Assembly: GCA_036521395.1 (NCBI GenBank)
Contig: DATDHV010000180.1
Coordinates: forward strand, 1,881 to 65,880
Direction of reading: 5' to 3'
DNA: 64,000 nucleotides
From: Steroidobacteraceae bacterium
GTDB lineage: Bacteria; Pseudomonadota; Gammaproteobacteria; Steroidobacterales; Steroidobacteraceae
Position 1 is the first letter of the stretch. The number at the start of each line of letters is the position of its first letter. Below the pieces are notes generated by a model that worked only from the letters and a program-made list of their open reading frames with translations, searched no databases and was not told where the DNA came from. The position numbers and the translations under genes were made by a program. Below are positions 1-21,761 of the stretch, one piece after another.

Positions 1-1228
1 CGGAATCGTTGATGCGAGTGATGGCATCGTCGAGCTGGGAGTAGCGCAGGACGGGGAGCACCGGACCGAACTGCTCGTCTCGCACGAGCCTCGCATCATC
101 CGGGATGTCGCGCACGATGGTGGGCCGCATGAAATATCCCGGTCGATCGAGTCGCACGCCGCCGGCGATGATCCGGCCGCGCGCGCGCGCCTCATCCACG
201 AAGCCCTGAACCCGCCCCAGCTGCGCCTGGTTCTGCAGTGGCCCGAATTCGGTTCCGACTTCCAGGCCATCGCCCACCACGGCCGCGTCGGCCAATCGCA
301 CCAGTATCTCGCAGAGTGCTTCATAGAGCGAGTCGGGCGCGTAGACGCGCTTGATGGCCAGGCAAACTTGCCCGCTATTGGCCATGGCACCCGCGAAGAT
401 CTTCGGCGCCACGGTTGCGATGTTCGCATCATCCATCACCAGCGCCGCATCGTTGCCGCCCAGTTCGAGCGTCAGGCGCTTGACCGTCCCCGCTGCGCTC
501 GCCATGACTTTGCGACCTGTCACAGTCGAACCCGTGAAGGCAACTTTCGCAACGTCTGGGTGACTTGTAAGCGCATCACCCAAATCGTTCAGATCCGTGA
601 TGACATTTGCCACGCCGGCGGGAAGCACTTCGGCGCAGATCTCCCCGAAGCGCAGCGTCGTCAAGGGGGTTGTCGGCGCTGGCTTGAATACGATGGTGTT
701 GCCTGCCAAAAGCGCCGGGGCAAATTTGCTCATAAGCAGAATGATGGGCAGGTTCCAAGGGGTAATGGCCGCTACGACGCCCAGCGCCGCTCGCTGCCGC
801 ACGATACGAACGTCGGCAGTGTTCTTGAGCACCGTTTCCGGCAGATCCATGGCGGCAAATGCCCGAATCATGCCGCTCGAACGCTCGATCTCCCGTCGCG
901 CCTGCAGGAGGGGTTTGCCCTGCTCCTGGGTCAGCAGGCGTCCCAGCTCTTCACTACGTGAAGCCAACTTCTCGGCCACCTGCAATAGCAGCGCGCGTCG
1001 TTCAGCCAGCGCACGTCTTGACCAGCTTGGAAAGGCCGCCTTGGCCGCGGCGACCGCGCGATTGAGCTGCGCGAGATCGGCACGCGGGCAGCGCGCCAGC
1101 AGGCGCTCGTTGGCAGGATTGATGACATCGAAGGCGTCCGCCCCGGTCACGAGATGTCCGTCGATGAGCAGTCTGAACTCCGCGCCGGCATCAGTGGGCG
1201 AACCGGCAAGGGTGGTTGCGGTACTCAT
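1..1228 (-). CDS. NAD(P)+-dependent aldehyde dehydrogenase (N-terminal ~409 aa; C-terminus runs off the left window edge)
   Basis: Absent from the ORF track because it has no in-window stop. Manual minus-strand translation from ATG 1228-1226 gives MSTATTLAGSPTDAGAEFRLLIDGHLVTGADAFDVINPANE... ALDH hallmarks are present: FTGSTVTGRKV, ELGGNDAALV and NSGQVCLAIKRVY (catalytic Cys). No in-frame stop down to position 1. ATGA overlap with the stop of the upstream MFS gene. Confidence 0.85.
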   Translation of the reverse strand, partial: MSTATTLAGSPTDAGAEFRLLIDGHLVTGADAFDVINPANERLLARCPRADLAQLNRAVAAAKAAFPSWSRRALAERRALLLQVAEKLASRSEELGRLLTQEQGKPLLQARREIERSSGMIRAFAAMDLPETVLKNTADVRIVRQRAALGVVAAITPWNLPIILLMSKFAPALLAGNTIVFKPAPTTPLTTLRFGEICAEVLPAGVANVITDLNDLGDALTSHPDVAKVAFTGSTVTGRKVMASAAGTVKRLTLELGGNDAALVMDDANIATVAPKIFAGAMANSGQVCLAIKRVYAPDSLYEALCEILVRLADAAVVGDGLEVGTEFGPLQNQAQLGRVQGFVDEARARGRIIAGGVRLDRPGYFMRPTIVRDIPDDARLVRDEQFGPVLPVLRYSQLDDAITRINDS

Positions 1229-2493
1229 ACGGTCTGAGGTATCCCGGAGTTTGCGCTCGTCTGCGGCTTCGCTCCCAGTGAGGCGGTCAGCACGACGGAC
1301 ACCAGCGTGGCGATGGCCGATGCGGACAACAGCGCAACGTAGGACGAGAACAGATCGTAGCTGTGGCCGGCGAAGTAAGATCCCAGCGCACCGCCGGCAT
1401 TGAAGAGCACGAACAGCGTGCCGTAGATTCGGCCCAGCGAGACACGACCGAAATAGTGCACGCAGAAGAAACCGAGCGCATCGAATTCGAGCCCGAGTCC
1501 TATACCGAGTGCGATCAGCATAAAGGCCGCTGCCGAAGCACCCGGAATAAGGGCCAGCCCAGCGAGCCCGAGAACCGGGAACACCAGCAAGCCTGCAGCG
1601 ATGAACGGTGGGTGGAATCTATCCAGCATATAGCCGGCGCCCAGTCGGGCGATGATGAGTGAGAACCCAAGCAGTGCGGCGAGATTGCCGGCATCGGCGC
1701 GAGCGACCCCTCGATCCACGAGCAGCGGGATGATCTGCGAGACCATACCGTTCAGGGAAATTCCGAGCAGCAGCGTTGCCGCGGCCAGTTTCCAGAACGT
1801 CGTGGTGCGCAGGGCCTGCATGAATCCGAATCCGCCGTCCGAACCATCGCCGACCAGCGCGTCGCCACGCGGGGCGGCGTCTCCGTCCGGATTCAGGCCG
1901 CGCTCTGAGGGACGATTTCGCACCACCAGGTACAGCGCCGGTAAGACGATGAAAATATTGATGAGCCCGAGCGCCACGAAGGCATCCCGCCAGCCGCTCG
2001 CTTGAATGATCCGGCTCACGAGCGGCGGCAGGATCAGGGCGCCGGCACCGGCTCCCGATATGCCAAGCGCCAGCGCAAGCCCCTTGCGCCGATCGAACCA
2101 GGCGACAATGAGTCGGACATAGCTGATCGACTGGGTACCCGCGCCGAGCGCCGAAAGCAGGATCAGACCGAAATAATAATGACGGATGTTCCGGTCCACG
2201 AAATGAAAGAGGCACAGGATGACGCCGAAGCAGAGTGTCGACAACAACAACGGCCGTCTGACCCCGACCTTGTCGATAAGGATTCCGACCAGCGGCAGCG
2301 CAATGATCGTGGTCACGTAGACACAGGTCATTCCCAGGGCGATGGAGCCCCGCGTCCACCCGAACTCTTCCGACAATGGCAGCGTGAAGGCGCTGAAGGC
2401 GTAAATCTGTGTGCCCACGAAACCGAAGCAGATGCCGAGAGCCGATACGGCGACGATCAGCCACCCGTAGAAAGGTCTGTTGGCCGCCCTCAT
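1225..2493 (-). CDS. MFS transporter
   Basis: 422-aa ORF that is hydrophobic throughout, with ~12 predicted helices. MFS-like loop motif GILIDKVGVRRPLL. Its stop overlaps the ALDH start by 4 bp. Confidence 0.85.
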   Translation of the reverse strand: MRAANRPFYGWLIVAVSALGICFGFVGTQIYAFSAFTLPLSEEFGWTRGSIALGMTCVYVTTIIALPLVGILIDKVGVRRPLLLSTLCFGVILCLFHFVDRNIRHYYFGLILLSALGAGTQSISYVRLIVAWFDRRKGLALALGISGAGAGALILPPLVSRIIQASGWRDAFVALGLINIFIVLPALYLVVRNRPSERGLNPDGDAAPRGDALVGDGSDGGFGFMQALRTTTFWKLAAATLLLGISLNGMVSQIIPLLVDRGVARADAGNLAALLGFSLIIARLGAGYMLDRFHPPFIAAGLLVFPVLGLAGLALIPGASAAAFMLIALGIGLGLEFDALGFFCVHYFGRVSLGRIYGTLFVLFNAGGALGSYFAGHSYDLFSSYVALLSASAIATLVSVVLTASLGAKPQTSANSGIPQTV

Positions 2494-2553
2494 GAGGATC
2501 TGCCTCCGCGTTCGATTGGCAGCGCGCGCAGGACGCGTGCCCCGAATGGATAT

Positions 2554-2577
2554 TAATGAGTATGCTGAGTATCACAT
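2554..2577 (-). promoter_or_regulatory. Conserved island box, copy 1 (core AGTATGCTGAGTAT at 2559-2572), upstream of MFS-ALDH and in the MarR divergent intergenic region
   Basis: One of four near-identical boxes (see 10088, 16171, 17161). Lies 66 bp upstream of the MFS start codon. A TTGACA hexamer on the minus strand (2592-2597) sits just upstream. Confidence 0.6.
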
Positions 2578-2727
2578 CCGCTGTTCGGATGTGTCAACGG
2601 CCGCACCGGTCGCGGACGAGTTCCGCATGATTTGTGCGGTGTACTAAGGTACGCTAGGCAGTGAGCCACGAGTGCAAGCGCATCGTTTCGCACCGGAGAC
2701 TAAATAATCAATAACGAATCTACAACC

Positions 2728-3189
2728 ATGGACCGCTCGCGAGTTATATGGAAGAGACCCGGCTTCCTTGTGCGCCGACTGCAGCAAATCTGGGTCGCCG
2801 TATTCATCAATGAATGCTCGGAGTTTGAAGTGACGCCGGTACAGTGGGGCGTACTGTCGATGGTGTCCGAGAACCCCGGGGTGGGCCAGATCGAGATTTC
2901 CGAGGAATTGGGATTGGATCGGTCGAACGTCGCCAACGTCGTCCATCGCCTTGCGAGGCGCGGGCTGCTCCGACAGAAACTCAGCCCCACCGATCAGCGG
3001 AAGAAGGACATCACCATCACCAAGGCGGGGGAGAAGGTGATGTCGCGCATCGAGGAATGTGCGGGTCGGGCGCAGCGGAAGATCCTCGCGCCATTGGATG
3101 ATCGGGAGCGCGAGATCTTCATGGAACTGCTCTCGCGTCTGGTCCGGGAGAACAACCATTTGGGGCGTGCGATCCTCCGGCTCAACTAA
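2728..3189 (+). CDS. MarR-family transcriptional regulator
   Basis: 153 aa. Winged-HTH region VTPVQWGVLSMVSENPGVGQIEISEELGLDRSNVANVVHRLARRGLL..DQRKKDITITKAGE is typical of MarR. Divergent from MFS-ALDH. Confidence 0.9.
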   Translation: MDRSRVIWKRPGFLVRRLQQIWVAVFINECSEFEVTPVQWGVLSMVSENPGVGQIEISEELGLDRSNVANVVHRLARRGLLRQKLSPTDQRKKDITITKAGEKVMSRIEECAGRAQRKILAPLDDREREIFMELLSRLVRENNHLGRAILRLN

Positions 3190-3202
3190 GCTCGAAGAGC
3201 CC

Positions 3203-4342
3203 TCACTCCAGTACCGCGTTCAATTCGCGCGGCGTCGATAGCAGCGGCTCCGGCCCCTTCGGCGTAACAATGACGGTATCGCCGAGCACGAAGTAGCCGG
3301 CCAGCGGCGTGAAGGTGTTCGGATGAACCACGAGCACCGCGTTCTCTTCCAGCACCGTGTGCACTCCCTCGATAATGTGGACCTCATCGAGGTAGAGTCC
3401 CATGCAGTGCCCTCGCACACGCGTGTAGTCCGATGTGCAGTATTCACCGTAGCCGTGGCGCCTGAAGACATCGTTCTCGGCCTTGGCCACTTCGTGCGCG
3501 GTGACACCCGGTTTGATGGCCTCGAGTCCGGCGACGACGGCTTCCTCGAATAATGCAAACGACTCCCGATGCCTATCAGTCGAAGGGCCGACGACAGCGG
3601 TGCGGCAGATCTGCGTCCAATAGCCCTTGAATTGAGGTGTGAGCTCCGTTCGCACGAGATCCCCTCGCTCGAGCCGACGATCGGACGGCGGCGTCATTCC
3701 TCGCACCTCGTCGCCGCCGGAGGCGATCAACATGAAGTTGTCTTCCGCTCCCTCCGCTCGCAGGCGTGCTTCGACGTCGGCGACGATTTCGAATTCCCGC
3801 ACGCCTGGCCGGCAGGCCGCCTGAAAGGCCTTCCAGGACAAATCGCAGATCTCACCCGCACGGCGCAGCCGCGCGAGTTCGAATTCGCTCTTGACCAGTC
3901 GGATGCCGTCCATCAGATCGGTGGCAGTCGCGAATTCGATCTGAGGCAGGAGCGATTGCAGCTGCCGCCAGACAGTCACTGGCACGAACTCGGCGCCTGC
4001 AATACCGACTCGGCCGCGCGCGAAATCCTCGCGCACGCGATCCGCGAGTCCTGATACATCTGGAAACACCACTTCCTGAACATCATCGACAAACCCCGTC
4101 TGCCGCATCGCCTGCGCGTCGAGCGGCGAGCAGGCGAACGCGCTGACTGCCCCCGATAAGGGCACATAGGCTAGCGCTGCGCTCGAGTCGAGCGCCGCGT
4201 CGGTGACATAGCGGACGTTCTCACGTCGCCACGCCGGGGCGAAGGCGATCAGCGCATCAAAGCCTGCGGAACCGATGGCCTTGCGAATCCGGGCAGTGCG
4301 CCAGGCAGCTTCCGATTTTGGGCTCCGCGCCGCGGCCGTCAT
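3203..4342 (-). CDS. M24-family (creatinase/prolidase-like pita-bread fold) hydrolase, metal ligands apparently substituted
   Basis: ORF 3203..4363. Start moved to ATG 4342, which forms an ATGA overlap with the upstream stop, as at every other junction in this operon. Creatinase/prolidase N-domain plus a C-terminal pita-bread region (GDLVRTELTPQFKGYWTQICRT, GHCMGL, VLVVHPNTF, LGDTVIVT). Confidence 0.8.
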   Translation of the reverse strand: MTAAARSPKSEAAWRTARIRKAIGSAGFDALIAFAPAWRRENVRYVTDAALDSSAALAYVPLSGAVSAFACSPLDAQAMRQTGFVDDVQEVVFPDVSGLADRVREDFARGRVGIAGAEFVPVTVWRQLQSLLPQIEFATATDLMDGIRLVKSEFELARLRRAGEICDLSWKAFQAACRPGVREFEIVADVEARLRAEGAEDNFMLIASGGDEVRGMTPPSDRRLERGDLVRTELTPQFKGYWTQICRTAVVGPSTDRHRESFALFEEAVVAGLEAIKPGVTAHEVAKAENDVFRRHGYGEYCTSDYTRVRGHCMGLYLDEVHIIEGVHTVLEENAVLVVHPNTFTPLAGYFVLGDTVIVTPKGPEPLLSTPRELNAVLE

Positions 4343-5385
4343 GAGGCCAGCTCCTTCCGGCACAGCGGCACCGCGCCGGATGGGGAGATGCTCACGGTAT
4401 CTGTGGCAATGACGGGACCATCGTCACCACAGAGTGTCAACTGAATGCAGACCACCTCGTTAACCTGTAGGGGCCGATTTGAGTCGTCCGGGCTGCGATA
4501 GAGCCCGCGCGTTTCGAGATCCAGATATGGGTAGCACGCCAGCCGCGCGCGTCCCGATCCTCCAAATCGTCCGGTAGTGCGGCGCGCCAGACTCGTCTCG
4601 TTTACTCCTGGCCGCGCCGCCGCAAGTAAGTCCCGCAATGCCGTCTCCGCCAGAGTTGCCGACGGCCCGTTGCGCGACAGCGACCGCCGCACCCAGACAT
4701 CGCGGTACTGGCCGATTGCATCGATCCATTCGGTCGAATCCCCCAAGCCGCCGGCGGCCACGGTGGCGTCCTGGAAGCCATCGCGTCGCAATGCACGCAC
4801 GGCGATGGCGGCGCACTCCTCTGCACTGGTGCCGCCAGACCAGGCCAGCCTCAGCGCGTCAGCCAGCCGTCCGGCACCACTTTCAAGCAGGCGCCGCGTC
4901 TCGACCGAAGGCACGAGGCGGGCGGCGCGTACGGCAGGCCCCAGATCTTCGAGCAGCATGTCTGGCAAGGCCTCCCTGATTTGCTCGACGAGTTGGTGGG
5001 GCCACCATGGCAAGTCGATAAGCGCCAGCGATCCCCTGCATTGGCCCGGCTGATCCTGCAGATATTTGCTGACACTTTCGGCCAGCTGGGGACCGCTGCG
5101 GATGTCCTGGAGCGTCGAGGTCTGACGCATCCACGTCGTTACGCGCTTGGAGAGCTTGGTAATGAGCGCGGGAGGTCCGTCCCTAGGGACGGCCAGTACG
5201 GCCTCGCTCCAATAGAGGCAGAGATTGGTCAGATAGTTGATATCACCCGAGCGCGATACGTCGCCATACACCAGGGCGACGTGAGCGCTCGATCGCCGTA
5301 GCTGCGCTTGCAGCGCCTCTATACGGGCAGCGTAGACCTCGCGCGGTATCTCGCGTTGGTCGAGCGTGACCAATCCTCGCTTCAT
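4339..5385 (-). CDS. Divergent M24/creatinase-like protein (degenerate paralogue)
   Basis: 348-aa ORF. The N-terminal region resembles the creatinase/prolidase N-domain (ARIEALQAQLRRSSAHVALVYGD...NYLTN). The C-terminal half is only weakly pita-bread-like. 4-bp overlaps on both sides. Confidence 0.6.
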   Translation of the reverse strand: MKRGLVTLDQREIPREVYAARIEALQAQLRRSSAHVALVYGDVSRSGDINYLTNLCLYWSEAVLAVPRDGPPALITKLSKRVTTWMRQTSTLQDIRSGPQLAESVSKYLQDQPGQCRGSLALIDLPWWPHQLVEQIREALPDMLLEDLGPAVRAARLVPSVETRRLLESGAGRLADALRLAWSGGTSAEECAAIAVRALRRDGFQDATVAAGGLGDSTEWIDAIGQYRDVWVRRSLSRNGPSATLAETALRDLLAAARPGVNETSLARRTTGRFGGSGRARLACYPYLDLETRGLYRSPDDSNRPLQVNEVVCIQLTLCGDDGPVIATDTVSISPSGAVPLCRKELAS

Positions 5386-5885
5386 GATTGCTCCACCAGC
5401 CGCGAGCCGATCGCAATCACGCCACCGGCGCGCAGCATCTCGAGGAGGAAGGGATCGGCGGGGGGCCCTCGATGCGTGCGAGCCGTGCGTTCGACCTTCA
5501 CCTCGCCCGCGGGCACATCCACTTCGAGCACGTCACCTTCGATAACGTTCTGGCGGATGCCTGGAATTTCGGTGATCGGCAGTCCCACTTCGAAGGCGTT
5601 GCGATAGAATGTGCGGGCAAAGCTCTCCGCCACGATGCACGAAATGCCCGTTGCCTGCAGCGCCCGCACCGCAATAGCTCGACCGGAGGACTGTCCGAAA
5701 TGCTTTCCAGCCACGAGAACATCCCCACGCTGAACATTGCCCGCGAAACCGGGGTTGGCGTCTTCCAGTACGTGGCGCGCAATTTCGTCAATCGGCAGGA
5801 AGAATCGGTGCGACTTGATGATCTGGTCGGTGGGTACGTAGTCCCCGACGATCCAGCACGCTCCTTTGAACCTGAAATCCGTCAT
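5382..5885 (-). CDS. Aconitase-family small subunit (LeuD-like), degenerate motif
   Basis: 167 aa with the LeuD-like swivel domain. The canonical NFGCGSSREHA motif reads HFGQSSGRAIA. 4-bp overlaps with both neighbours. Confidence 0.75.
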   Translation of the reverse strand: MTDFRFKGACWIVGDYVPTDQIIKSHRFFLPIDEIARHVLEDANPGFAGNVQRGDVLVAGKHFGQSSGRAIAVRALQATGISCIVAESFARTFYRNAFEVGLPITEIPGIRQNVIEGDVLEVDVPAGEVKVERTARTHRGPPADPFLLEMLRAGGVIAIGSRLVEQS

Positions 5886-7144
5886 GACAGGTCCCGAGCG
5901 TCCGTGAGCGAGCCGCGCAATGCCGATGCCGCCACGGTCAGCGCGGAGGCCAGGAACATGCTGGCCAAGGCGCTACCGTTGCGACCCGGAAAGTTACGCG
6001 AGTGGGTCGAGATCATGCTCTCACCGGCGGCCATGGCGCCCATGTTGATGCTCTGATTGGAACCGGTGCTTGGCGGGAACCAGAGCGCCCCGGCCTCGTG
6101 CAGTTGCTGAACGAGACCCTCCTGAAGTGCCTGCGCGAAGACGGGCCTGCTTGACGGGACGATGTTGAAGCGGACATTCGGGTGTACACGCTGACCCGCG
6201 AGCACCCGCGCAGCCATGCGAATGTCCTCTATGCGGCCACCCCCGTGTCCGCCTATCTCCGCCCATTGAATCCTCGTTCCGGCTAACGCGCGCACGGGCT
6301 TGACGTTGCCCACGCTCGGCGGGCAGGCGACCTGCGGTTCGATTTCCGACACATCGAATCTCCAGGTGGCTTCGGGACGTCGCTGGGGTTGCGGCGTAAT
6401 CTCCAACCCCTCCCACGCCTGCATCGATTTTGCGGCGCGCGCGAACTCGAACAGCTTCTCATCCGGCTCGATGTACCCGCACTTCGCGCCCACATCCACG
6501 GTGATTAGCGGGAACAGCCAACGGTCGAAAAGGCTCAAGCCTTCGATGAAGGGCCCGCTGAACTCCAGCGCCTTGTAGACGGCTCCGTCCTCCCCGATCT
6601 GAGCCACAAGCCACAAGGCGATATCGCGCGCCGAAGTGCCGTCGCGCAATGCGCCAGACAGCTCGATACGAACCGTGGCCGGCACGCGGAACCAGGCTTT
6701 GCCGTGCGGAAACACCATGCCGGCGTGGCAATCGTTTCCAACTGCCACCGCAAACGCACCCAGCGTGCCGTGCACTGGCGTGTGGCTGTCGGATCCGACA
6801 ACTACCATCCCCGGGCCAATGAAGCCGCCTCGGGCGACGGCATTGTGGATATTGCCGCTACCGCAGTTGAGCAATGTGATGCCGTATTTCTCCGCCCAAT
6901 CGCGATCGGATTTGAGCACCTCGGCCTCGCGCTCTCGGGGCGGCGAGAAAATATGATCGAACACCATGATCACGCGATCGGGATGCTTGAGCGGCTTGTT
7001 GACCTTCTCTTCGTAGACACGCGAGGTCATGTACCCGCTCAGATCGTGCATGATCATTCGATCCACCTCGGCAATGACTATATCGCCGGGCGAGACGCTG
7101 CCGCGTCCGCTCGCGCGCGCGAGAATGCTCTCGATCAGGTTCAC
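5882..7144 (-). CDS. Aconitase-family large subunit (LeuC-like) lacking the three Fe-S cluster cysteines
   Basis: 420 aa. Retains VVGSDSHTP and STHSRNFPGRNGS. GSC(A/T)N is replaced by GGHGG, and PGCGAC by PSTGSN. Confidence 0.8.
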   Translation of the reverse strand: MNLIESILARASGRGSVSPGDIVIAEVDRMIMHDLSGYMTSRVYEEKVNKPLKHPDRVIMVFDHIFSPPREREAEVLKSDRDWAEKYGITLLNCGSGNIHNAVARGGFIGPGMVVVGSDSHTPVHGTLGAFAVAVGNDCHAGMVFPHGKAWFRVPATVRIELSGALRDGTSARDIALWLVAQIGEDGAVYKALEFSGPFIEGLSLFDRWLFPLITVDVGAKCGYIEPDEKLFEFARAAKSMQAWEGLEITPQPQRRPEATWRFDVSEIEPQVACPPSVGNVKPVRALAGTRIQWAEIGGHGGGRIEDIRMAARVLAGQRVHPNVRFNIVPSSRPVFAQALQEGLVQQLHEAGALWFPPSTGSNQSINMGAMAAGESMISTHSRNFPGRNGSALASMFLASALTVAASALRGSLTDARDLS

Positions 7145-8412
7145 GCCAGGACCTCGCGGGGGTCGGTGATCACGCCAGTAATGGCAGAGGCGGCCGCTGT
7201 CGCCGGACTGGCCAGGTAAATGGCAGATTCGTAGCTGCCCATGCGGCCGCGGAAGTTGCGATTGGCGGTCGAGAGCGTGACCTCACCCTGGTCCATCGCG
7301 CCGCCATCCCCGGCACAGGCGCCGCATCCGGGATTCGTGATAAGGGCGCCGGCTTCGATGAGCGTCGACAGTACACCGCTGTCCGCGGCCTTCTTCATGG
7401 TATCGCGTGAACCCGGCGTGACGAGCAATCGGACTCCTGCCGCCACCCTGCGCCCTTTCAGGATCTTCGCCACCTCCACCAGGTCGTCATACTTGGCGTT
7501 GGCGCAGGAGCCAACAAATACCTGGTCCAGCTTCACTCCGGCGACCTCGCCCACAGGGCGTACGTTGTCGACCGCGTGCGGGCATGCCACTTGTGGCGCA
7601 AGACTCGTTGCGTCGATTGAGAGTTCGCGTACATAAAGGGCGCCGTCATCCGGCAGCAACGCATGGCGCGCGGGATCGTCGACGCCAGCGGCTGCCAGAT
7701 AGTCGTAGGCGATCGCATCGGGACGCACGTAGGCGTTCTTGGCACCGAGCTCCATGGCCAGATTGCAAAGCGTCATGCGCTCGGAGATCGACATCGATGC
7801 CGTCAGCGCTCCGTCGAACTCCATCGACTGATACGTTGCGCCGTCGGCCGTCAGGTCCCCGATGAGCTTGAGCATGATATCCTTGGGAAACACGCCAGGC
7901 GAGAGTCGTCCCGCAAGCGTCACCCGCATGGACTCCGGCACCATCATCCACAGTACGCCCGTCACCCAGGTCGCTGTAATCTCGCTGAAGCCGACGCCCG
8001 TACCAAGCGCACCTAGCGCACCGTAGATTGTCGAATGCGAATCTGTGCCGATGATGATCTCGCCGGGCCTGATGAGACCGCGTTCCATCAATACGAGGTG
8101 GGCGATGCCCTCGTTAACATCGAAGAAATGCCCAACGCCGTAGTGCCGTGCAAACTCCCGGCACAGCCGATGGTGACCGGCTACCTGTGCGGTGGGTGCG
8201 GGTGCGATGTGATCCATCACCATGGCAATTCGCTCGGGATGGCGGATCGTTGCTCCCGGGAGCTTTTCGAAGGTCTTGATGCAACGCCAGCTCGCCGTGT
8301 GACTCATGTAGAGGTCGGGTGCCACCTCGACGATGGTGCCCGGAGCGAGACCGCTCGAGCCGGAAGCGCGCTCGATTGCCTTCTGTGCAAAGGTCTTCGC
8401 AGATTCCGTCAC
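7141..8412 (-). CDS. Aconitase-family hydro-lyase large subunit (LeuC/HacA-like), intact 4Fe-4S ligands
   Basis: 423 aa with motifs IIGTDSHST, VFVGSCANAKYDDL, NPGCGACAG and STANRNFRGRMGS. Confidence 0.9.
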   Translation of the reverse strand: MTESAKTFAQKAIERASGSSGLAPGTIVEVAPDLYMSHTASWRCIKTFEKLPGATIRHPERIAMVMDHIAPAPTAQVAGHHRLCREFARHYGVGHFFDVNEGIAHLVLMERGLIRPGEIIIGTDSHSTIYGALGALGTGVGFSEITATWVTGVLWMMVPESMRVTLAGRLSPGVFPKDIMLKLIGDLTADGATYQSMEFDGALTASMSISERMTLCNLAMELGAKNAYVRPDAIAYDYLAAAGVDDPARHALLPDDGALYVRELSIDATSLAPQVACPHAVDNVRPVGEVAGVKLDQVFVGSCANAKYDDLVEVAKILKGRRVAAGVRLLVTPGSRDTMKKAADSGVLSTLIEAGALITNPGCGACAGDGGAMDQGEVTLSTANRNFRGRMGSYESAIYLASPATAAASAITGVITDPREVLA

Positions 8413-8927
8413 CGCCGCGCCTCGGATGCGAGCTTGCGCGCGACGTAGGGAATCAATCCGCCTGCATTGAGGATGCGCGTCAGATTTTCGGGGTAGGGCG
8501 GAAATGAGAAACGTCCGCCCAGCGTCTCGATCATGCCCGCCGCCACATCGATAAATACCTCGTCACCGTCGGCGATATGAGCCTCGGCATCGGCCGACTG
8601 CAGGGCGGCGAGTCCAGTATTGATAGCGTTGCGGAAGAATACGCGAGCGAATGATTGTGCCACCACAGCCTGAATGCCCGCACCGACCAGGCAGCTGGCG
8701 GCCTGCTCGCGGGCGCTACCGCAACCGAAATTCCTGCCGGCCACTATCACTTTGGCCGCCCGAAAGCGGTCCTGAAACGCGCGCCCGAGCGGCTCAAAGG
8801 CGTGCCCGGCGAGTTCAACCGGATCGATGCTCGTCAGATATCGGCCCGGAATGATCACATCGCTGTTGACGTGATCGCCGAGCTTCACGCATCGACCGCC
8901 GATGACCCATGAGCTGCGTTCGCTCAT
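8409..8927 (-). CDS. Aconitase-family hydro-lyase small subunit (LeuD/HacB-like)
   Basis: 172 aa with motif VIVAGRNFGCGSAREQA and FARVFFRNAINTGL. Confidence 0.9.
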   Translation of the reverse strand: MSERSSWVIGGRCVKLGDHVNSDVIIPGRYLTSIDPVELAGHAFEPLGRAFQDRFRAAKVIVAGRNFGCGSAREQAASCLVGAGIQAVVAQSFARVFFRNAINTGLAALQSADAEAHIADGDEVFIDVAAGMIETLGGRFSFPPYPENLTRILNAGGLIPYVARKLASEARR

Positions 8928-10006
8928 GGTGTCGTCGCCTCCAGGAACCAGTCCGTGGGTACCTCGCGTCCAAGTCCCCGCTGCTTCGCCAACTCCAACA
9001 CGCGCGATCCCACGGCGGCAAACTGCAATCCCATGCCGGTATTGTTTGCGAACACGGTGATGTCTTTATCCGAACTGCGTCCCTTACCGCGTCCGCTCAG
9101 GAGGTCGCCGATCGACACGATGTCCTCCATGGTGATGCGGCCGCGGGTCACAGGGCCTAGGATGTCGAATTGATTGTCGTGCAGAATCTGCTCCTTGGCG
9201 GTGACGACGATGCGGTTGGCGCGATCGAAGGTCACATCGTCTAGTTCACGGCGCTTCGCGGTTCCGTCCGGCGAGGTGATGGCCGTGACGTGTGTACCTG
9301 CTTCGAGCCACTCGCCCTCAAAACACGGATCCATGGCGGCTGTCGCACAGGTAACGATCTCGCAACCCACCACGGCATCGCGCGGCTGATCGACTGCAAC
9401 GATGCGAACTTCCTGGAAGTGCGAACCTTCCGTCTGCGCAAATCGCTGGCGGTTTGCGGGGGTCGGGCTGTACACACGCACCTCCTTGATGGAGGGCCGC
9501 ACGCGCAACAGACAGTGAAGATGCGATTCCGCCTGCCACCCGGACCCGAAAAGACCCGCCACTCGCGGCGACTTCACTGCCAGCTCACGGATCCCCAGTG
9601 CCGAGGTGGCGCCGACGCGCCACTTCTGCACGATACTGTCGTGCATGACACAGAGCGGCTCCAGGGTGCTCATGCTGAACAGGAACACCAGACCGACGTA
9701 CTTGCCCCCTGGTGCCGCCGGCAGCAGGCGCCGGCGCTCCACTCCGTTGGCAAGGCGCTCGACACCGACCAGGTCCGAAGTAATGCGCAGAGCCCAGACG
9801 CCACTAGAAACGCTGCCGCCTTCCTGAGACTTGAAACGGAAATGAAATCCGGGATGCCTGGCGTCCTCGACGGGAAAGTAGGTATGGGTACGCTCGCGAT
9901 TTGCGGCGCGCGCATCGGCGTACTCCTTGTACGCAATCTCGAGCGAGGACATGCAGTCCTCCACCGTCAATAAGCTCCCGACATCCTCGTTCGACAACAC
10001 CAACAT
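8924..10006 (-). CDS. Ornithine cyclodeaminase / mu-crystallin family NAD(P)-dependent enzyme
   Basis: 360 aa. Rossmann motif GLFGSGWQA and family-typical C-terminus (ITVFANNTGMGLQFAAVG). First gene of the 7-gene overlapping operon. Confidence 0.9.
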   Translation of the reverse strand: MLVLSNEDVGSLLTVEDCMSSLEIAYKEYADARAANRERTHTYFPVEDARHPGFHFRFKSQEGGSVSSGVWALRITSDLVGVERLANGVERRRLLPAAPGGKYVGLVFLFSMSTLEPLCVMHDSIVQKWRVGATSALGIRELAVKSPRVAGLFGSGWQAESHLHCLLRVRPSIKEVRVYSPTPANRQRFAQTEGSHFQEVRIVAVDQPRDAVVGCEIVTCATAAMDPCFEGEWLEAGTHVTAITSPDGTAKRRELDDVTFDRANRIVVTAKEQILHDNQFDILGPVTRGRITMEDIVSIGDLLSGRGKGRSSDKDITVFANNTGMGLQFAAVGSRVLELAKQRGLGREVPTDWFLEATTP

Positions 10007-10087
10007 GCTTCAAGTGCTCCTTGACTCGAGTTGCCCCCCTCGATGAATGCAGTCCTGTCAAGTGGGGTGAATGTGGTTCAGTAAATT

Positions 10088-10109
10088 AAGAAGTGTACTG
10101 AGCATTACC
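10088..10109 (-). promoter_or_regulatory. Conserved island box, copy 2 (core AGTGTACTGAGCAT at 10092-10105), upstream of the OCD-like operon
   Basis: 86 bp upstream of the start at 10006. Shares AGT...CTGAG.A and the 3' flank TACC with the copy at 16171. Confidence 0.55.
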
Positions 10110-10230
10110 TCCGTTCGCAATTTGCACACCAACAGCGCCACCGTCGCCGAACACCTCGCCGTGATCGCGATACTTTCGGCGGCTTCCGTTGCTCTGGCAG
10201 CCGGTACGCATCATCTGGCGGGCCTCTCGG

Positions 10231-10929
10231 TCACTGCTGATCCGCGTGATACTGATTGAGCTCGATGACCTGGCCGTCCGGATCGACGACGTAGATCGAG
10301 TCCGGCTTGCCGTCATCAGCGCGTAGCGGCGTGTTTATGAATCGGATACCGGCCGCCTTCAGCTTTACCAACAGCCCGGCGAGATCCGTCACCCGATAGG
10401 CGTTGTAGCCCTTGCCCTCGAAATTGCCGGTGGGATTTTTGTAGATGCTCTTGTCGAGAGGAGTGCCCGTCAACTCCCAGACCTCGATCCAGGGTACGTG
10501 TGACCCGATCGTCGGTCCGCCCGGCATGTTTAGAAGGAGATGCTTGTAGTGCCCCGTCTTGAGGCCTAGCAGTTGGTCCATAGCTGGGTTCTCGGCTCGA
10601 TCGGTGATGTCGTGCGCTACTGTAAATCCCAGTAGATCCACGTAGAAGTGCCGGCACTTAACGATGTCCGCGGTGAAGATGTGCGTATGATCCAGGCCGA
10701 GCACGCCCGCCGGGCTCGGCGCGAGGGTCGCGGGATGATCGACCGTCGGCACGTTGAAGTGCGGCAGGTGGTACGAGCTCGCAGCCGGCGGCGCACCCGC
10801 CGTGCCGCCCGATTGTTCCTGACCGGCGCCTTGCACCACGGCGCCGGTCGAAAGCGCGGTCAGGAGAATCATCCCGTGCCAGGCCGCTCTGCGCGCTCGC
10901 GCCTTTCCTGGCAAGTCGTTGCTTCGCAT
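10231..10929 (-). CDS. Secreted VOC (glyoxalase/bleomycin-resistance/dioxygenase) family protein
   Basis: 232 aa. N-terminal signal-like segment (AWHGMILLTALSTGAVVQGAG), a low-complexity linker, then a VOC module (GLDHTHIFTADIVKCRHFYVDLLGF ... YVVDPDGQVIEL). Confidence 0.75.
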   Translation of the reverse strand: MRSNDLPGKARARRAAWHGMILLTALSTGAVVQGAGQEQSGGTAGAPPAASSYHLPHFNVPTVDHPATLAPSPAGVLGLDHTHIFTADIVKCRHFYVDLLGFTVAHDITDRAENPAMDQLLGLKTGHYKHLLLNMPGGPTIGSHVPWIEVWELTGTPLDKSIYKNPTGNFEGKGYNAYRVTDLAGLLVKLKAAGIRFINTPLRADDGKPDSIYVVDPDGQVIELNQYHADQQ

Positions 10930-10961
10930 GTCGATGTCCTCAGGTTTGTGACGATTGGTGG

Positions 10962-11639
10962 TTAATCGCTGTCCTTTCCCCAGTAGTTGTTCAGCTCGAT
11001 AACCTGCCCGTCCGGATCGATCATGTAGACCGCGCCGGGAAGATGATGGACGGGATTGATGTTTGGCTCGGCTACGAACTTGACCCCCTGAACCTTTAGA
11101 CGCGTGATGATCTCCGCCAGATTCTTCACCCGATAGGCGTTGTAGCCCTTGCCCTGAAAGTTGCCCGTGGGATTGTTATAGATACTCTTATCAAGCGGGA
11201 CTCCGGTAATCTCCCAAAGCTCGATCTGCGGAACGTGCGTACCATAGGAAGGTCCGCCTGGCATGTTCAGGAGCGCCGATTTGTAATGGGCGTTCTTAAG
11301 ACCCAGCAGATTGTCCATGCGCGGATTCACCGGTGTGTCCTCGACGGGCGTGGCTTGCGTAAAGCCGAGCAGGTCGACGTAGAAGTGAATGGATCGATTG
11401 ATGTCGGCCGTAAAGACGTGTGTGTGCTCGAGTCCGTAAAAACCCTTCGCATTCGCATGTACGGGAGCCGGATGATCGACGTGCGGCAGATTCTGTCCGG
11501 CATCCGAATAGGCGTCGGGGGGCGGTGCGGCGGTCTGGGCGGTAGCGCTGGCCGACATAGCGGTGGCGACTCCGCTGAGGGCCGCACCAATCAAAGCTCG
11601 AGCGAAGCGACTCTTCCCGGTCAGATGCATGGCGTTCAT
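10962..11639 (-). CDS. Secreted VOC family protein (tandem paralogue of 10231..10929)
   Basis: 225 aa. Signal-like N-terminus (ALIGAALSGVATAMSASATAQ). Collinear similarity to its neighbour (GLEHTHVFTADINRSIHFYVDLLGF, NPTGNFQGKGYNAYRV, YMIDPDGQVIEL). Confidence 0.75.
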   Translation of the reverse strand: MNAMHLTGKSRFARALIGAALSGVATAMSASATAQTAAPPPDAYSDAGQNLPHVDHPAPVHANAKGFYGLEHTHVFTADINRSIHFYVDLLGFTQATPVEDTPVNPRMDNLLGLKNAHYKSALLNMPGGPSYGTHVPQIELWEITGVPLDKSIYNNPTGNFQGKGYNAYRVKNLAEIITRLKVQGVKFVAEPNINPVHHLPGAVYMIDPDGQVIELNNYWGKDSD

Positions 11640-11677
11640 CTCTCACTCCTCGGTGGTGGTGGCGCGTGCGCGCCTGC

Positions 11678-13792
11678 TCAGTTCCAATGGATATTCGAGG
11701 GCTGGTTGTGGGCGCCGCGCGAGACGTACTCGTAAAGCGCCCCAACATCGTCCTTGCTGAGTTCGCCCGAGAAGCTCGGCATACCGAGCGCTTCGAGGGC
11801 GCCCCCCAGCACGATGGACCGGAAGCCGTCGGGTCCTATCTCATGCACACGCTCCAGGTTGGGCAGATTTGGAGCGGAACCGGATCTACCATGACAGGAG
11901 GCGCAGTGCCCGTACAACCGTGCGCCGCGTATCATCAGCTCCGGATCGGCCGGCGCGAACTTGCTCAAATCCACGACCGGCGGGCCCTTCGGCACAGGGC
12001 GCTTCGGGGGTGTCGGAACCTCGCCGCCATCGAGCTTGAACACCAGCATGCGGCCCTCGTTCTCGTAGATCCTCGCCGCGGAGTCATCCGCCATCCGCCA
12101 GCTGAGAGCACCGCCGTAGCCCGCGGCAACCGCGACATATTGTGTTCCGCCCACCGAGTACGTCATCGGCCCCGCAATGGCGGCGCTGCCCGTGAACAGC
12201 CGCTTGAGCTCCGCGCCCGTGCGCGCATCGTAGGCATTGAAATAGCCATCCTGTGTCGGTTGAAACACAAGGTCGCCGGCCGTGGCGAGAACGGATCCGT
12301 TCCAAGTGTCGCTGTGTTTTACCTGCCAACGAACTACGTGAGCAATTGGATCCCAGGCGCGCAGAAACCCTCCGATGTCGACCGTCGGCTGACCCTTGGT
12401 CATCTCGGCGAGCTGCTTGGGCGAAGCGATCAGATGCCAGATGTAGGAGTGCGCGGGATTCATCGAGAATGACGTCGGATTATCCTGTGCCGGGATATAG
12501 ACGAGCCCGGTCTTCGGGCTGTACGCCTGCGGAAACCAGTCGTGCGCACCGTTGCCATTCGGAAAGATCAATCGATCGTGTTTGCTGTAATCGGCATAAT
12601 CGGTTACTACCGGGCGCCCGGTCTTCATGTCGATACCGCTGGCCCAGTTCACCGCACCGTACTGTTGCGCCGAGAGTAATTCACCGGTCTTGCGATCCAG
12701 GACGTAGAAAAACCCGTCCTTCGGCGCCTGCATCGCCACCTGGCGCACACGACCATTGATCCGAACATCCGCCAGCGTGATGGGACTGTCCGCGTCGTAG
12801 TCCCAGCGGTCGCCTGGCACTTCCTGGTAGTGCCAGGCCACACGCCCCGTGTCCGCATGCAGCGCCATGATGGACGTGATGTATAGGTCGTCGGTCTTGT
12901 CCTCCGGTCGCTGCTGCTTCCACGGACCGGTGTTCCCAGTGCCGAAATAGAGCAGATTCAGCTTAGGATCGAAGGACATCATCCCCCAGACGCTGCCGCC
13001 GCCTTGATCAGTCCATACGTCATCGGCAGGCCAGGTTCTTGCCGCCGCGGCTTCATCGGCATTCTCGAACGGTCCGTTAGGCCCCTTGGGCACTACGAAG
13101 AATCGCCAGACTTGCGCGCCGCTTCGGGCATCGTAGGCAGTCACATAGGCGCGAACTCCTGAATCGCCGCCGCTGTTGCCGAGGATCACCTTGCCATTTG
13201 TCGCTAGTACGGGACCCGTCACACTGTATGGGCGATCGTGATCGATGATGGTGTCGACATTCCAGTCGACTTTGCCGGAGCCGGCATCAAGAGCCACCAG
13301 GTGCCCATCGAGCGTGGCGACATAGACGCGGCCCTTCCACACCGCAAGGCCCCGATTGACGATGTCGCAGCACACGTGCCTGACGACGCTGGATCGATTG
13401 ACTGGCTGGTAGGACCAAAGTGTGTGCCCGGTCACCGCATCGAATGCGAACACCTGGCCCCAGGTACTGCTAACATACATGACACCGCCGACGACGATCG
13501 GGGTAGCTTCCAGACCACGATCGGTATTCATGTCGGCCTGCCAAGCGAAGCCTAGTCGCCCCACCGTCTGCGTGTTGATCTGCGCCAACGGCGAGTAGCG
13601 GCGCTCCGAATAATCCCCACCACTCGATGGCCATTGCGATCCATCCTTTGCAAAAGCCGCCACCGTGGCCGCATCGACATTGGCGGCAATCGGGGGCGAC
13701 GCCTCGGCCGGCAGCGGCGACAGCAGAGCCATCGCCAGCCCAGCCAGCACGGGGCAGAGCATTCGTAGATTCACCGCCAACTCCGGGTACAC
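11678..13792 (-). CDS. PQQ-dependent quinohemoprotein dehydrogenase (alcohol dehydrogenase type II-like)
   Basis: 704 aa. Signal peptide, a beta-propeller with the vicinal Cys pair (VRHVCCDIVNRG), and a C-terminal cytochrome c domain with CASCH heme motif. Confidence 0.9.
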   Translation of the reverse strand: MYPELAVNLRMLCPVLAGLAMALLSPLPAEASPPIAANVDAATVAAFAKDGSQWPSSGGDYSERRYSPLAQINTQTVGRLGFAWQADMNTDRGLEATPIVVGGVMYVSSTWGQVFAFDAVTGHTLWSYQPVNRSSVVRHVCCDIVNRGLAVWKGRVYVATLDGHLVALDAGSGKVDWNVDTIIDHDRPYSVTGPVLATNGKVILGNSGGDSGVRAYVTAYDARSGAQVWRFFVVPKGPNGPFENADEAAAARTWPADDVWTDQGGGSVWGMMSFDPKLNLLYFGTGNTGPWKQQRPEDKTDDLYITSIMALHADTGRVAWHYQEVPGDRWDYDADSPITLADVRINGRVRQVAMQAPKDGFFYVLDRKTGELLSAQQYGAVNWASGIDMKTGRPVVTDYADYSKHDRLIFPNGNGAHDWFPQAYSPKTGLVYIPAQDNPTSFSMNPAHSYIWHLIASPKQLAEMTKGQPTVDIGGFLRAWDPIAHVVRWQVKHSDTWNGSVLATAGDLVFQPTQDGYFNAYDARTGAELKRLFTGSAAIAGPMTYSVGGTQYVAVAAGYGGALSWRMADDSAARIYENEGRMLVFKLDGGEVPTPPKRPVPKGPPVVDLSKFAPADPELMIRGARLYGHCASCHGRSGSAPNLPNLERVHEIGPDGFRSIVLGGALEALGMPSFSGELSKDDVGALYEYVSRGAHNQPSNIHWN

Positions 13793-13845
13793 GCCATCAC
13801 AGCTTGTTTAGGCGCGCTCGGACTCGTAACGACATTCGGGCACAA

Positions 13846-16098: not shown

Positions 16099-16170
16099 GT
16101 GACCCCCCTATTCACTTAGATCCTCGCCGGACTCAGTTTGAATCCGACGGCTGCAGGAATTCGACGACAT

Positions 16171-16192
16171 ATGCAGTATACTGAGTAATACC
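16171..16192 (-). promoter_or_regulatory. Conserved island box, copy 3 (core AGTATACTGAGTAA at 16175-16188), upstream of the TonB receptor operon
   Basis: 77 bp upstream of the start at 16098. On the minus strand, TTGACA (16214-16219), 18 nt, then TATGGT directly precede the box. Confidence 0.6.
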
Positions 16193-16303
16193 ATAGCAGC
16201 GCGCCTGACGCAGTGTCAAACTCATCGACGCACTATTTCCCCCGTATAAACGCAGCGCGCGCGGCGCGGTCAGGCGAAGAGGCTACGATACAAAATAAAT
16301 TCC

Positions 16304-17098
16304 TCATAGCGGCGCATCCGGATTGATGAGCGTGCGCCACATATGCGCCACCGGGCCGTTGTCGTTGCCGAGTCCCTCGGCCGGCTGTTTGAAATGACGA
16401 CCGACGATGTCGGTGAACGTTTCGAATGCCACGACCGCCTTGGGGTCGAAGGCATAGAGGTCACTGGCAGTCACCTCACGAGCATCACCGTACCAGCGAT
16501 GCTTGCGCACGAATTGATAGGTCTGTTCAAGACGCGGATCTGGGACATAGTCATCGCCGTAAATCCGTCGGTAGATATCCGGGTAGCTATATCCGACCTC
16601 GGCGTCTGCGAAGAAGCGCAAGGGCTGGTGATACTTGATCGCGAATGCCGTCCGTTCGGACACGTACGGCTCCATGAGCTGCGCGCCCCAATATCCATGG
16701 TCTGCGCACATGAACTCCTGCGCGATATCGTGCAGCAGGCAGGCAAGCACGATCTCCTCGTCTGCGCCTCTCTCGAGCGCTTTGTTGGCGCTCTGCAGGC
16801 AATGATTGCCGGTGTTCGCCAAGCGAAGCCGGAAGAAATCGGCCAGTTTCGGAGCCACAGGCATGGGCGGTAAGCGCGCTACGAGGCCGCCCTCGGCGCG
16901 GCTCCAGAACATGCGGCCAACCCCGCGCCTGTACGGACGGGTGGTGATCTGCGCATCGAGTTCGGCAACCGTTGGGTAACGCGCGGAAGGTGCGGTAAGC
17001 GCCGCCGAGCCAGCCGGCAGTGCAGCACTCACATTCGGCTCGGATGTGACCTTTTCAGTGTGCAACTGCCGATCCCCCAGCCCATGCTCCTCGTCCAT
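16304..17098 (-). CDS. HD-domain metalloprotein (phosphohydrolase or HD-type oxygenase; function unknown)
   Basis: ORF track gives 16304..17140 with a GTG start. ATG 17098 is preferred because it is preceded by GAGGAG with a 6-nt spacer. His/Asp pattern: NHCLQSA, LLHDIAQ, ADHGYWG, IKYHQ, plus later Asp residues. Confidence 0.75.
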   Translation of the reverse strand: MDEEHGLGDRQLHTEKVTSEPNVSAALPAGSAALTAPSARYPTVAELDAQITTRPYRRGVGRMFWSRAEGGLVARLPPMPVAPKLADFFRLRLANTGNHCLQSANKALERGADEEIVLACLLHDIAQEFMCADHGYWGAQLMEPYVSERTAFAIKYHQPLRFFADAEVGYSYPDIYRRIYGDDYVPDPRLEQTYQFVRKHRWYGDAREVTASDLYAFDPKAVVAFETFTDIVGRHFKQPAEGLGNDNGPVAHMWRTLINPDAPL

Positions 17099-17160
17099 CG
17101 TTATCTCCTCAACGTTCGCAGGCGGAACAGTATGAGGCACCCTTTAAGGTGCAGATATTA

Positions 17161-17183
17161 TAATCAGTACGCTGAGTATCAAG
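17161..17183 (-). promoter_or_regulatory. Conserved island box, copy 4 (core AGTACGCTGAGTAT at 17166-17179), upstream of the HD-domain gene
   Basis: 68 bp upstream of ATG 17098. Flanked on the minus strand by TTGACT (17182-17187) and TATAAT-like sequence. Nearly identical to copy 1 over ~20 nt (TGATACTCAGCrTACTsATTA on the minus strand). Confidence 0.6.
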
Positions 17184-17315
17184 TCAAGAGCAACAGATTG
17201 AGAGAGATCGGCGTCCAACCACATCACGCTATGAGACGGGTTTCTGCCAAAATTGACCTGAAATTCCCGGTTAACCGCCACGGCTGACAGTGGCATGCTA
17301 GGGGGAGCGCCCTGG

Positions 17316-18924: not shown

Positions 18925-21757
<2,833 letters not shown>

Positions 21758-21761
<4 letters not shown>

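Follow-up and report, generated by a model that had tools for sequence, protein, structure and literature searches.

The 64,000-nucleotide stretch of DNA analysed here (hereafter the window) comes from a Steroidobacteraceae bacterium (assembly GCA_036521395.1, contig DATDHV010000180.1) and encodes two adjacent aconitase-family protein pairs of the LeuCD type, each made up of a large LeuC-type and a small LeuD-type subunit. The pair L1/S1 has intact ligands for a [4Fe-4S] cluster. The pair L2/S2 is an intact LeuCD-type pair under selection that has no cluster ligands and possesses the complete set of acid/base and carboxylate-binding residues; by fold and residues it belongs to the archaeal-type LeuCD/HacAB branch, but it fails the cofactor feature of this branch. 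With a probability of about 0.5, we read L2/S2 as an active, cluster-free acid/base lyase or isomerase that would act in sequence with L1/S1 in an uncharacterised catabolic pathway.

Cluster ligands and catalytic residues of the two pairs

The four open reading frames (ORFs) are located on the minus strand as reported in the initial annotation, and all motifs quoted there are present: S1 (8409..8927, 172 aa), L1 (7141..8412, 423 aa), L2 (5882..7144, 420 aa) and S2 (5382..5885, 167 aa). The Pfam domain Aconitase (PF00330) was assigned to L1 (E 3.5e-92) and L2 (E 4.1e-65), and Aconitase_C (PF00694) to S1 and S2 (E 9.7e-10 for S2). A protein identical to L2 is on record from a Steroidobacteraceae metagenome-assembled genome.

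Large subunits were aligned with HMMER to the M. jannaschii isopropylmalate (IPM) isomerase (4KP1/4NQY), homoaconitase (4KP2) and pig mitochondrial aconitase. In this alignment, L2 has His300, Thr360 and Asn363 in the columns of aconitase Cys358, Cys421 and Cys424. His300 is part of the motif GGHGGGR (6233..6253, minus strand), Thr360 and Asn363 belong to PSTGSNQ (6053..6073, minus strand). The proposal that the second pair lacks every Fe-S cysteine ligand is thereby confirmed. Two asparagines that touch the cluster in aconitase are replaced as well, Asn258 by Leu213 and Asn446 by Ser382, a position at which most relatives have Ala.

The substrate-side motifs, described earlier as being kept in the second pair, are indeed retained in the alignment, as are the catalytic ones. 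Aconitase Asp100-His101 corresponds to D63-H64 of L2, His147 to H100, Asp165-Ser166-His167 to D119-S120-H121, Glu262 to D217, and Arg447 and Arg452 to R383 and R388, respectively. All of these residues, together with H33, N363 and Q364, are 100% identical in 168 unique sequences of the L2 clade. Column 300 contains His in 166 of the 168 sequences and Ser in the remainder; column 360 is occupied by T, A or G, and by Ser in one further locus ORF.

An AlphaFold2 model of L2 (pLDDT 89, pTM 0.90) superimposes on MjLeuC (4KP1) with a TM score of 0.91. L2 misses the cut-offs of the NCBIfam subfamily models NF001614 (366.1 vs 385 bits), TIGR02086 (352.1 vs 410.15) and TIGR01343 (348.1 vs 385.7). The current annotation of L2-clade genes as "3-isopropylmalate dehydratase large subunit" is very likely wrong.

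The partner small subunit S2 carries HFGQSSGRAIA (5670-5702, minus strand), conserved as HFGQSSGRA[IV]A in 75/80 orthologues. As suggested before, this segment stands in place of NFGCGSSREHA, to which it aligns in MjLeuD (3VBA). S2 keeps the equivalents of aconitase Ser642 and Arg644 (Ser67 and Arg69), and the equivalent of Ser643 is Gly. Both small subunits pass the TIGR02087 cut-off of 108.95 bits (S1 160.5, S2 130.7). The S2 gene lies immediately downstream of L2 in 69 of 72 loci. In four metagenome loci (L069, L070, L081, L089) two S2 paralogues come after a single L2, and each of them contains HFGQSSGRAVA; in plant IPM isomerase, multiple small subunits tune substrate specificity (PMC7308503).

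The first pair was described as intact, and this holds: L1 has Cys303, Cys363 and Cys366 at the three ligand columns and carries the motifs GSCANAK (7492-7512) and PGCGACAG (7309-7332, both minus strand). L1 scores above the cut-offs of NF001614 (496.5 bits, cut-off 385), TIGR02086 and TIGR01343, and Cys is found at all three columns in 51/52 L1-clade genes. The S1 motif NFGCGSAREQA (8700-8732, minus strand) contains GSAREQA in place of the usual GSSREHA, the equivalent of Ser643 being Ala. Since this variant is kept in 43/47 S1 orthologues, L1/S1 represents a distinct, uncharacterised LeuCD subfamily. L1 and L2 share 32% identity, S1 and S2 36%.

Conservation of the clade and its gene neighbourhood

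A search of 1.8 billion representatives at 50% identity showed that L2 belongs to a discrete clade, at the edge of which scores drop from 463 to 290 bits. Past this edge, Cys occupies all three columns in 139 of the 152 sequences in the alignment, which comprised 150 hits together with L1 and L2. Within the clade, all 93 genes obtained from 95 related loci are devoid of Cys at any ligand column and have [H/S], [T/A/S/G] and N there. The 120 database homologues listed (61-100% identical to L2) have H, T (A in one case) and N without exception; their hosts are Steroidobacteraceae, Nevskiaceae, Emcibacter, Streptomyces, Actinomadura, Pseudonocardia, Geodermatophilus and Deltaproteobacteria. The search of representatives also uncovered a sister subclade whose ligand columns hold Ser, Ala and Asn (GGSTGGR, PSAGSNQ). 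Breadth among the related loci came from the alignment-based metagenome scan, a single-protein genome scan having retrieved close relatives only, and a plasmid search yielded no orthologue (best match 38% identity). L1-L2 fusion ORFs of 488-931 aa seen in some loci were discarded as an artefact of long alternative frames in high-GC DNA.

Among close relatives, the pairwise ratio of non-synonymous to synonymous substitution rates (dN/dS) was 0.07-0.13 for L2, 0.06-0.13 for S2 and 0.05-0.09 for L1, with similar values for S1 and for the OCD-family gene of the same operon; dS is near saturation in most of these pairs, and there is more noise in the two comparisons between the most divergent sequences. 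Decaying duplicates had been considered as an explanation of the Cys-less genes. This is ruled out by conservation, low dN/dS and intact ORFs in all relatives, the Cys-less clade being conserved across phyla with invariant replacement motifs of its own. In a rough neighbour-joining tree the L2 clade is monophyletic on a long stem and nested among Cys-bearing relatives, not sister to L1, and the branching inside its subtree mirrors that of the L1 subtree. A recent tandem duplication of L1/S1 is ruled out too, as the pairs are only 32-36% identical and fall into separate clades.

The L2 and S2 genes are part of a module that contains an intact L-S pair and, usually, an OCD-family imine reductase and a pair of M24 (creatinase-like) proteins. 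It was found in Actinobacteria and in Alpha-, Gamma- and Delta-proteobacteria, with gene orders and importers that vary by lineage; it occurs commonly in metagenomes from soil and sediment, and cultured members of Streptomyces, Actinomadura, Pseudonocardia and Geodermatophilus have it as well. Unbiased ORF clustering over the loci gave four widely shared neighbour families, namely LeuC (twice), LeuD (twice), OCD (46 loci) and M24/Creatinase_N (42 loci), and no enzyme beyond these core genes was broadly conserved among the related loci. The two pairs do adjoin as initially described, but the conserved unit is larger than these four genes and includes the OCD-family reductase and the M24 pair. 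Eighteen loci extend at least 6 kb to each side of L2, and in these S2 is present in 17, L1 together with S1 in 15, M24 in 16 and OCD in 14. Pairing of the Cys-less clade with an intact copy, which had been asked about as a constant feature, is therefore the rule (15/18) but not absolute.

The order small-large-large-small noted at the outset applies to the window and to most relatives, but is not universal. The window as well as gamma- and alpha-proteobacteria show OCD-S1-L1-L2-S2-CreN-M24, where CreN denotes the degenerate member of the M24 pair, and actinobacteria show M24-CreN-OCD-S1-L1-L2-S2; S1-L1-L2-S2-M24-CreN-OCD also occurs among the related loci. In the delta-proteobacterial type, the order is L2-S2-OCD-S1-L1, followed by a gene for a UbiD-like decarboxylase (loci L031, L035, L037, L038 and L040). 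The UbiD-like gene is followed by one for a MetE-like (Meth_synt_2) protein in L031 and L038, and in L031, the one such locus scanned with Pfam, then by two genes whose products are a binding protein of the NMT1 type and a class II aldolase. A further variant combines L2-S2-S2', M24, a TRAP transporter and a more distant canonical L/S pair, with a DHOD-like flavoprotein that contains a 4Fe-4S dicluster domain in place of OCD. This replacement was seen in three long loci (L069, L070, L081), the TRAP transporter in L069. In loci L003 and L044, L2-S2 is accompanied by two OCD paralogues, TctC, and one ABC and one TRAP system, and the contig has no L1/S1. The 8-kb contig L095, which belongs to the Ser/Ala/Asn subclade, reads MFS-S2-OCD-M24-(242 aa)-L2-Amidohydro_2-NMT1, again with no L1/S1 on the contig; here the gene of the Amidohydro_2 (LigJ/decarboxylase family) protein occupies the usual position of the Fe-S pair.

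In every order with both pairs S1 directly precedes L1 and L2 precedes S2, even where the pairs are split by OCD, which argues for two cognate heterodimers, L2+S2 and L1+S1. The importers encoded nearby belong to five families across the lineages (MFS, NMT1-type ABC, Peripla_BP_6 ABC, TctC and TRAP). Since they differ by lineage, the module is probably catabolic and serves an imported small carboxylate.

In the window, the seven genes OCD-S1-L1-L2-S2-CreN-M24 follow each other on the minus strand and each junction is a 4-nt ATGA or GTGA overlap. Because start and stop codons overlap in this way from OCD through M24, the genes are expected to be co-transcribed and are probably translationally coupled. 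For the last junction, the overlap with the upstream stop codon requires that M24 starts at an internal ATG at 4342, which is likely to be its true start.

The first operon gene (8924..10006, minus strand) encodes a 360-aa protein of the OCD/mu-crystallin family (PF02423, E 1.7e-39) that stays below all NCBIfam equivalog cut-offs. The closest solved structures are archaeal AlaDH (1OMO), Delta1-pyrroline-2-carboxylate (Pyr2C) reductase (6T3E, a full-length match) and iminosuccinate reductase (6RQA). Orthologues with 55-97% identity are located near L2 in 46 related loci, and the protein is a probable NAD(P)H-dependent imine (ketimine) reductase.

The M24 gene (3203..4363, minus strand) encodes a Creatinase_N plus M24 "pita-bread" protein (PF00557, E 5.5e-33) that is closest to prolidases. 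In comparison with the P. furiosus prolidase (1PV9), H284 is kept and the other metal ligands are changed (D209 to E240, D220 to Q251, E313 to H347, E327 to G361). With four of five metal ligands replaced, an ordinary prolidase is ruled out. Creatinase is an M24-fold protein that is not a metalloenzyme, and the same probably applies to this protein. CreN (4339..5385, minus strand, 348 aa) is a degenerate paralogue that matches Creatinase_N only (PF01321, E 5.9e-07), is 23% identical to M24 over 294 residues and has no match among PDB sequences. Its dN/dS of 0.19-0.29 still indicates purifying selection. M24 and CreN form a second "intact plus degenerate" pair within the operon, kept in 42 related loci.

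Downstream of the operon, a small protein of 171 aa (2644..3159, minus strand) is not matched by any Pfam model itself, but shares 31-47% identity with the products of relatives' genes at the equivalent position. The one from Emcibacter is called MarR/MarR_2, and the protein of the window is probably the MarR-like regulator of the cluster. The next gene (1225..2493, minus strand) encodes an MFS transporter of the oxalate/formate-lactate type (PF07690, E 7.4e-38), weakly similar to an L-lactate MFS transporter. It occurs at the same position in gamma- and alpha-proteobacterial relatives, other importers being found elsewhere, and it likely imports the pathway substrate in this lineage. An operator-like 21-mer, ATRCTCAGNANACTNNTTAAT, is present within the 224 bp that precede the OCD operon (10085..10105) and again upstream of the MFS gene (2552..2572, both minus strand). 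It matches exactly twice in the 64 kb, where shuffles predict zero, and is probably the operator of the MarR-like protein.

The first ~18 kb of the window (1-18900) have a G+C content of 58-64%, compared with 65-72% in 18900-64000. Besides the cluster, this low-G+C part includes two VOC/glyoxalase genes, a TonB-dependent receptor and a PQQ-dehydrogenase that contains a cytochrome c domain. Its boundary adjoins guaB (18925-20391) and xseA (20466-21761) and showed neither a tRNA nor an integrase. The G+C shift and the patchy phyletic spread suggest that the cluster was acquired horizontally. The tandem VOC/glyoxalase genes (10231-10929 and 10962-11639) are located directly upstream of the operon, are kept in the closest relative (L019) only and probably lie outside the core pathway.

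Possible reaction and competing explanations

In aconitases, the sole job of the cluster is to bind and activate the hydroxyl group or water. Since L2/S2 has dropped the Lewis acid while its serine base, His/Asp acid and arginines are still in place, it would be best suited to a step that has no hydroxyl to activate. We envisage an active site in which the aconitase-type acid/base residues work with the serine base of the small subunit and the arginines hold a substituted-succinate skeleton, the former cluster pocket being remodelled into Gly-rich loops in which an Asp, an Asn and a Gln are invariant and a His nearly so. The reaction might be a Lewis-acid-independent beta-elimination/addition or a proton shift such as an enamine-imine tautomerisation. 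Its substrate would carry a non-hydroxyl leaving group, most plausibly an amine, on an N-substituted or cyclic aspartate-type skeleton. L2/S2 would make or consume a cis-alkene dicarboxylate and L1/S1 would then hydrate this alkene, so that the aconitase-type half-reactions would be split between two enzymes and Fe-S would be needed for the water step only. The operon, which is conserved and horizontally mobile, would serve the catabolism of a small carboxylate taken up by the cell; L2/S2 would contribute one step, alongside the Fe-S pair L1/S1, the OCD-family imine reductase and the non-metallo M24/creatinase-like heteromer.

Such a division of labour would explain why the two pairs travel together and why L1/S1 can be swapped for another hydratase or decarboxylase family. 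It would also explain the downstream decarboxylases of unsaturated acids and the presence in the module of a reductase for C=N or C=C bonds, either OCD or DHOD-like. Characterised members of the UbiD and Amidohydro_2 families act on unsaturated or aromatic carboxylates, and the occurrence of a UbiD-like decarboxylase, or of an Amidohydro_2 protein in place of L1/S1, near L2 is suggestive in that it suits the idea of an alkene-forming lyase.

There is a fair chance of new chemistry in L2/S2. A more far-reaching proposal is tentative, and we would rather bet against it: the clade would be the first within the aconitase superfamily to catalyse a reaction without any cofactor, as a C-N (or other non-hydroxyl) beta-elimination lyase that passes a cis-alkene dicarboxylate to its Fe-S sister and, together with OCD and the metal-free M24 heteromer, forms a new and widespread pathway for an N-containing dicarboxylate. 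The specific assignment as a C-N lyase is, if anything, slightly more doubtful.

Several observations weigh against an active cluster-free enzyme. The confidence of the L2 model is lowest in the would-be cluster loops (residues 360-370 and 380-390). Three semi-conserved cysteines of the clade, C94 (96%), C222 (88%) and C274 (81%), could in principle hold a cluster at another site. A non-catalytic partner would account just as well for the almost obligate co-occurrence and the translational coupling with L1/S1. The operon also encodes a degenerate M24 partner, so that pseudoenzyme partners may be a theme, and the proposed sequence of steps gives OCD no unique role.

Among the competing explanations, the one that survives best holds that L2/S2 is catalytically dead and serves as a scaffold or regulatory partner in an L1S1-L2S2 hetero-tetramer, where it would stabilise the complex, channel intermediates or set specificity. 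The presence of L1/S1 orthologues in 15 of the 18 well-flanked loci, the congruent L1 and L2 subtrees, the joining of the genes through 4-nt overlaps and the M24/Creatinase_N-only pair as another combination of intact and degenerate proteins would all fit. However, every acid/base and carboxylate-binding residue is invariant in the 168 sequences, and changes are confined to cluster-contacting positions, which have acquired a new invariant motif. Moreover, the delta-type order separates L2-S2 from S1-L1 by OCD, the contigs of L044 and L095 carry L2-S2 together with OCD or Amidohydro_2 but lack L1/S1, and two S2 paralogues would be left without an obvious reason. We consider a dead partner unlikely. 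The initial annotation had listed an enzyme with new chemistry, a scaffold pseudoenzyme and a hetero-tetramer side by side; of these, the sequence data favour the active enzyme.

Also unlikely, and a little more so, is a mononuclear metal (Fe2+, Mn2+, Mg2+ or Zn2+) at His300, Asp217, Asn363 and Gln364 that would replace Fe-alpha as the Lewis acid and preserve aconitase-like hydro-lyase chemistry. Asp217, Asn363 and Gln364 are invariant and His300 nearly so (166/168), these residues are situated at or beside the ligand columns, and AcnX provides a precedent for remodelling of the cofactor site (PMC5144071, PMC8184944). On the other hand, Asn and Gln are poor transition-metal ligands, and an essential role of His300 as a metal ligand is weakened by the sister subclade, which has Ser at this column (GGSTGGR) in the same gene context.

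An Fe-S cluster bound through C94, C222 and C274, comparable to the relocated ligands of AcnX, is very improbable. These cysteines are present in 81-96% of the clade and C94 and C222 are clade-specific, but none is invariant: in 4-19% of sequences they are replaced, mostly by Ser or Ala (in a few by Thr, Gly or Arg), whereas the true catalytic residues reach 100%. C274 occurs in canonical relatives, too, and the candidates align at aconitase Pro141 and Thr267, which by inference are not known cluster-site positions. Least probable of all is an oxidant- or iron-limitation-proof isozyme for the reaction of L1/S1, analogous to class II versus class I fumarase, since in spite of the shared fold, substrate-binding arginines and operon the pairs share a transcript and are coupled in translation instead of being regulated as alternatives, have 32-36% identity and different specificity loops, and are kept together across phyla.

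Relation to known systems and implications

The closest characterised relatives of L2/S2 are the archaeal-type LeuCD/HacAB enzymes (M. jannaschii MJ0499/MJ1277 and MJ1003; 4KP1, 4NQY, 4KP2, 3VBA). They have the same two-subunit architecture and fold (TM 0.91-0.92 and 31-35% identity to L2 in Foldseek alignments), matching acid/base and carboxylate-binding residues, and a serine base on the small subunit. In contrast to them, L2 has replaced the three cluster cysteines and two cluster-contacting asparagines and falls under the subfamily cut-offs, and the L2/S2 genes reside in a catabolic operon without LeuA/LeuB-type partners.

Apart from AcnX, in which the cofactor site has been remodelled, every member of the aconitase superfamily is reported to conserve the three cluster-ligating cysteines as well as the sites for cluster and substrate (PMC5144071, PMC8184944). 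AcnX resembles L2 as a hydro-lyase of the superfamily with a non-canonical cofactor site that is encoded together with an imine reductase finishing the reaction. However, it is only 12-13% identical to L2, with a TM score of 0.56 to 7CNP/7CNQ (Foldseek), and the sequence search of L2 gave no match to AcnX. AcnX still binds an Fe-S cluster, while L2 is LeuC-type and has Cys at no ligand column.

IRP2 and apo-IRP1 are likewise superfamily members that function without a cluster. They are RNA-binding proteins and not enzymes. Their architecture is the single-chain, four-domain AcnA/IRP type, whereas L2 has 420 aa, a separate small subunit and all catalytic residues; IRP1 and IRP2 match L2 weakly over residues ~106-232 (E 1.6e-5 to 2.4e-4).

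Hydroxyectoine/ectoine catabolism employs the dehydratase EutB, the OCD-like reductase EutC and the M24 hydrolase EutD/DoeA. The present cluster shares this enzyme logic, with a dehydratase or lyase, an OCD-family reductase and an M24 "pita-bread" hydrolase-type protein encoded together. Nevertheless, the M24 protein of the window matches ectoine hydrolase models weakly (E 7e-17), with all scores far under the equivalog cut-offs, the ectoine dehydratase is PLP-dependent and not aconitase-like, and the cluster contains no DoeB/EutE deacetylase.

Tandem LeuCD-like pairs are also encoded on the Skermanella mucosa plasmid pSM-2 (L015, NZ_CP086108.1 237579-241229), in the order L-L-S-S. Unlike L2/S2, both large subunits there have the three cysteines and both small subunits GSSRE. 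As both pairs keep their cysteines, doubled LeuCD pairs evidently arise independently of cluster loss. The Skermanella cluster adjoins a fatty-acid/polyketide-like gene set.

In agreement with the initial annotation, for which no characterised Fe-S-free LeuCD-type enzyme was known, a full-text literature search found no paper that describes this gene cluster or a Cys-less or Fe-S-free enzyme of the LeuCD type. Among non-redox Fe-S enzymes, the aconitase superfamily is the textbook example, and its three cysteines are treated as universal outside the distant AcnX. A clade that discards the cluster and keeps every catalytic residue would show that this fold is able to do chemistry without iron-sulfur. 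Purifying selection has acted on the L2 clade from a time that predates its spread over at least four bacterial classes. Conserved under strong selection in many phyla, the arrangement probably marks an unstudied enzyme chemistry and catabolic pathway. It points to a whole uncharacterised pathway with four enzyme types and varied importers, and since the module is present in cultured hosts, the question is directly testable in the laboratory.

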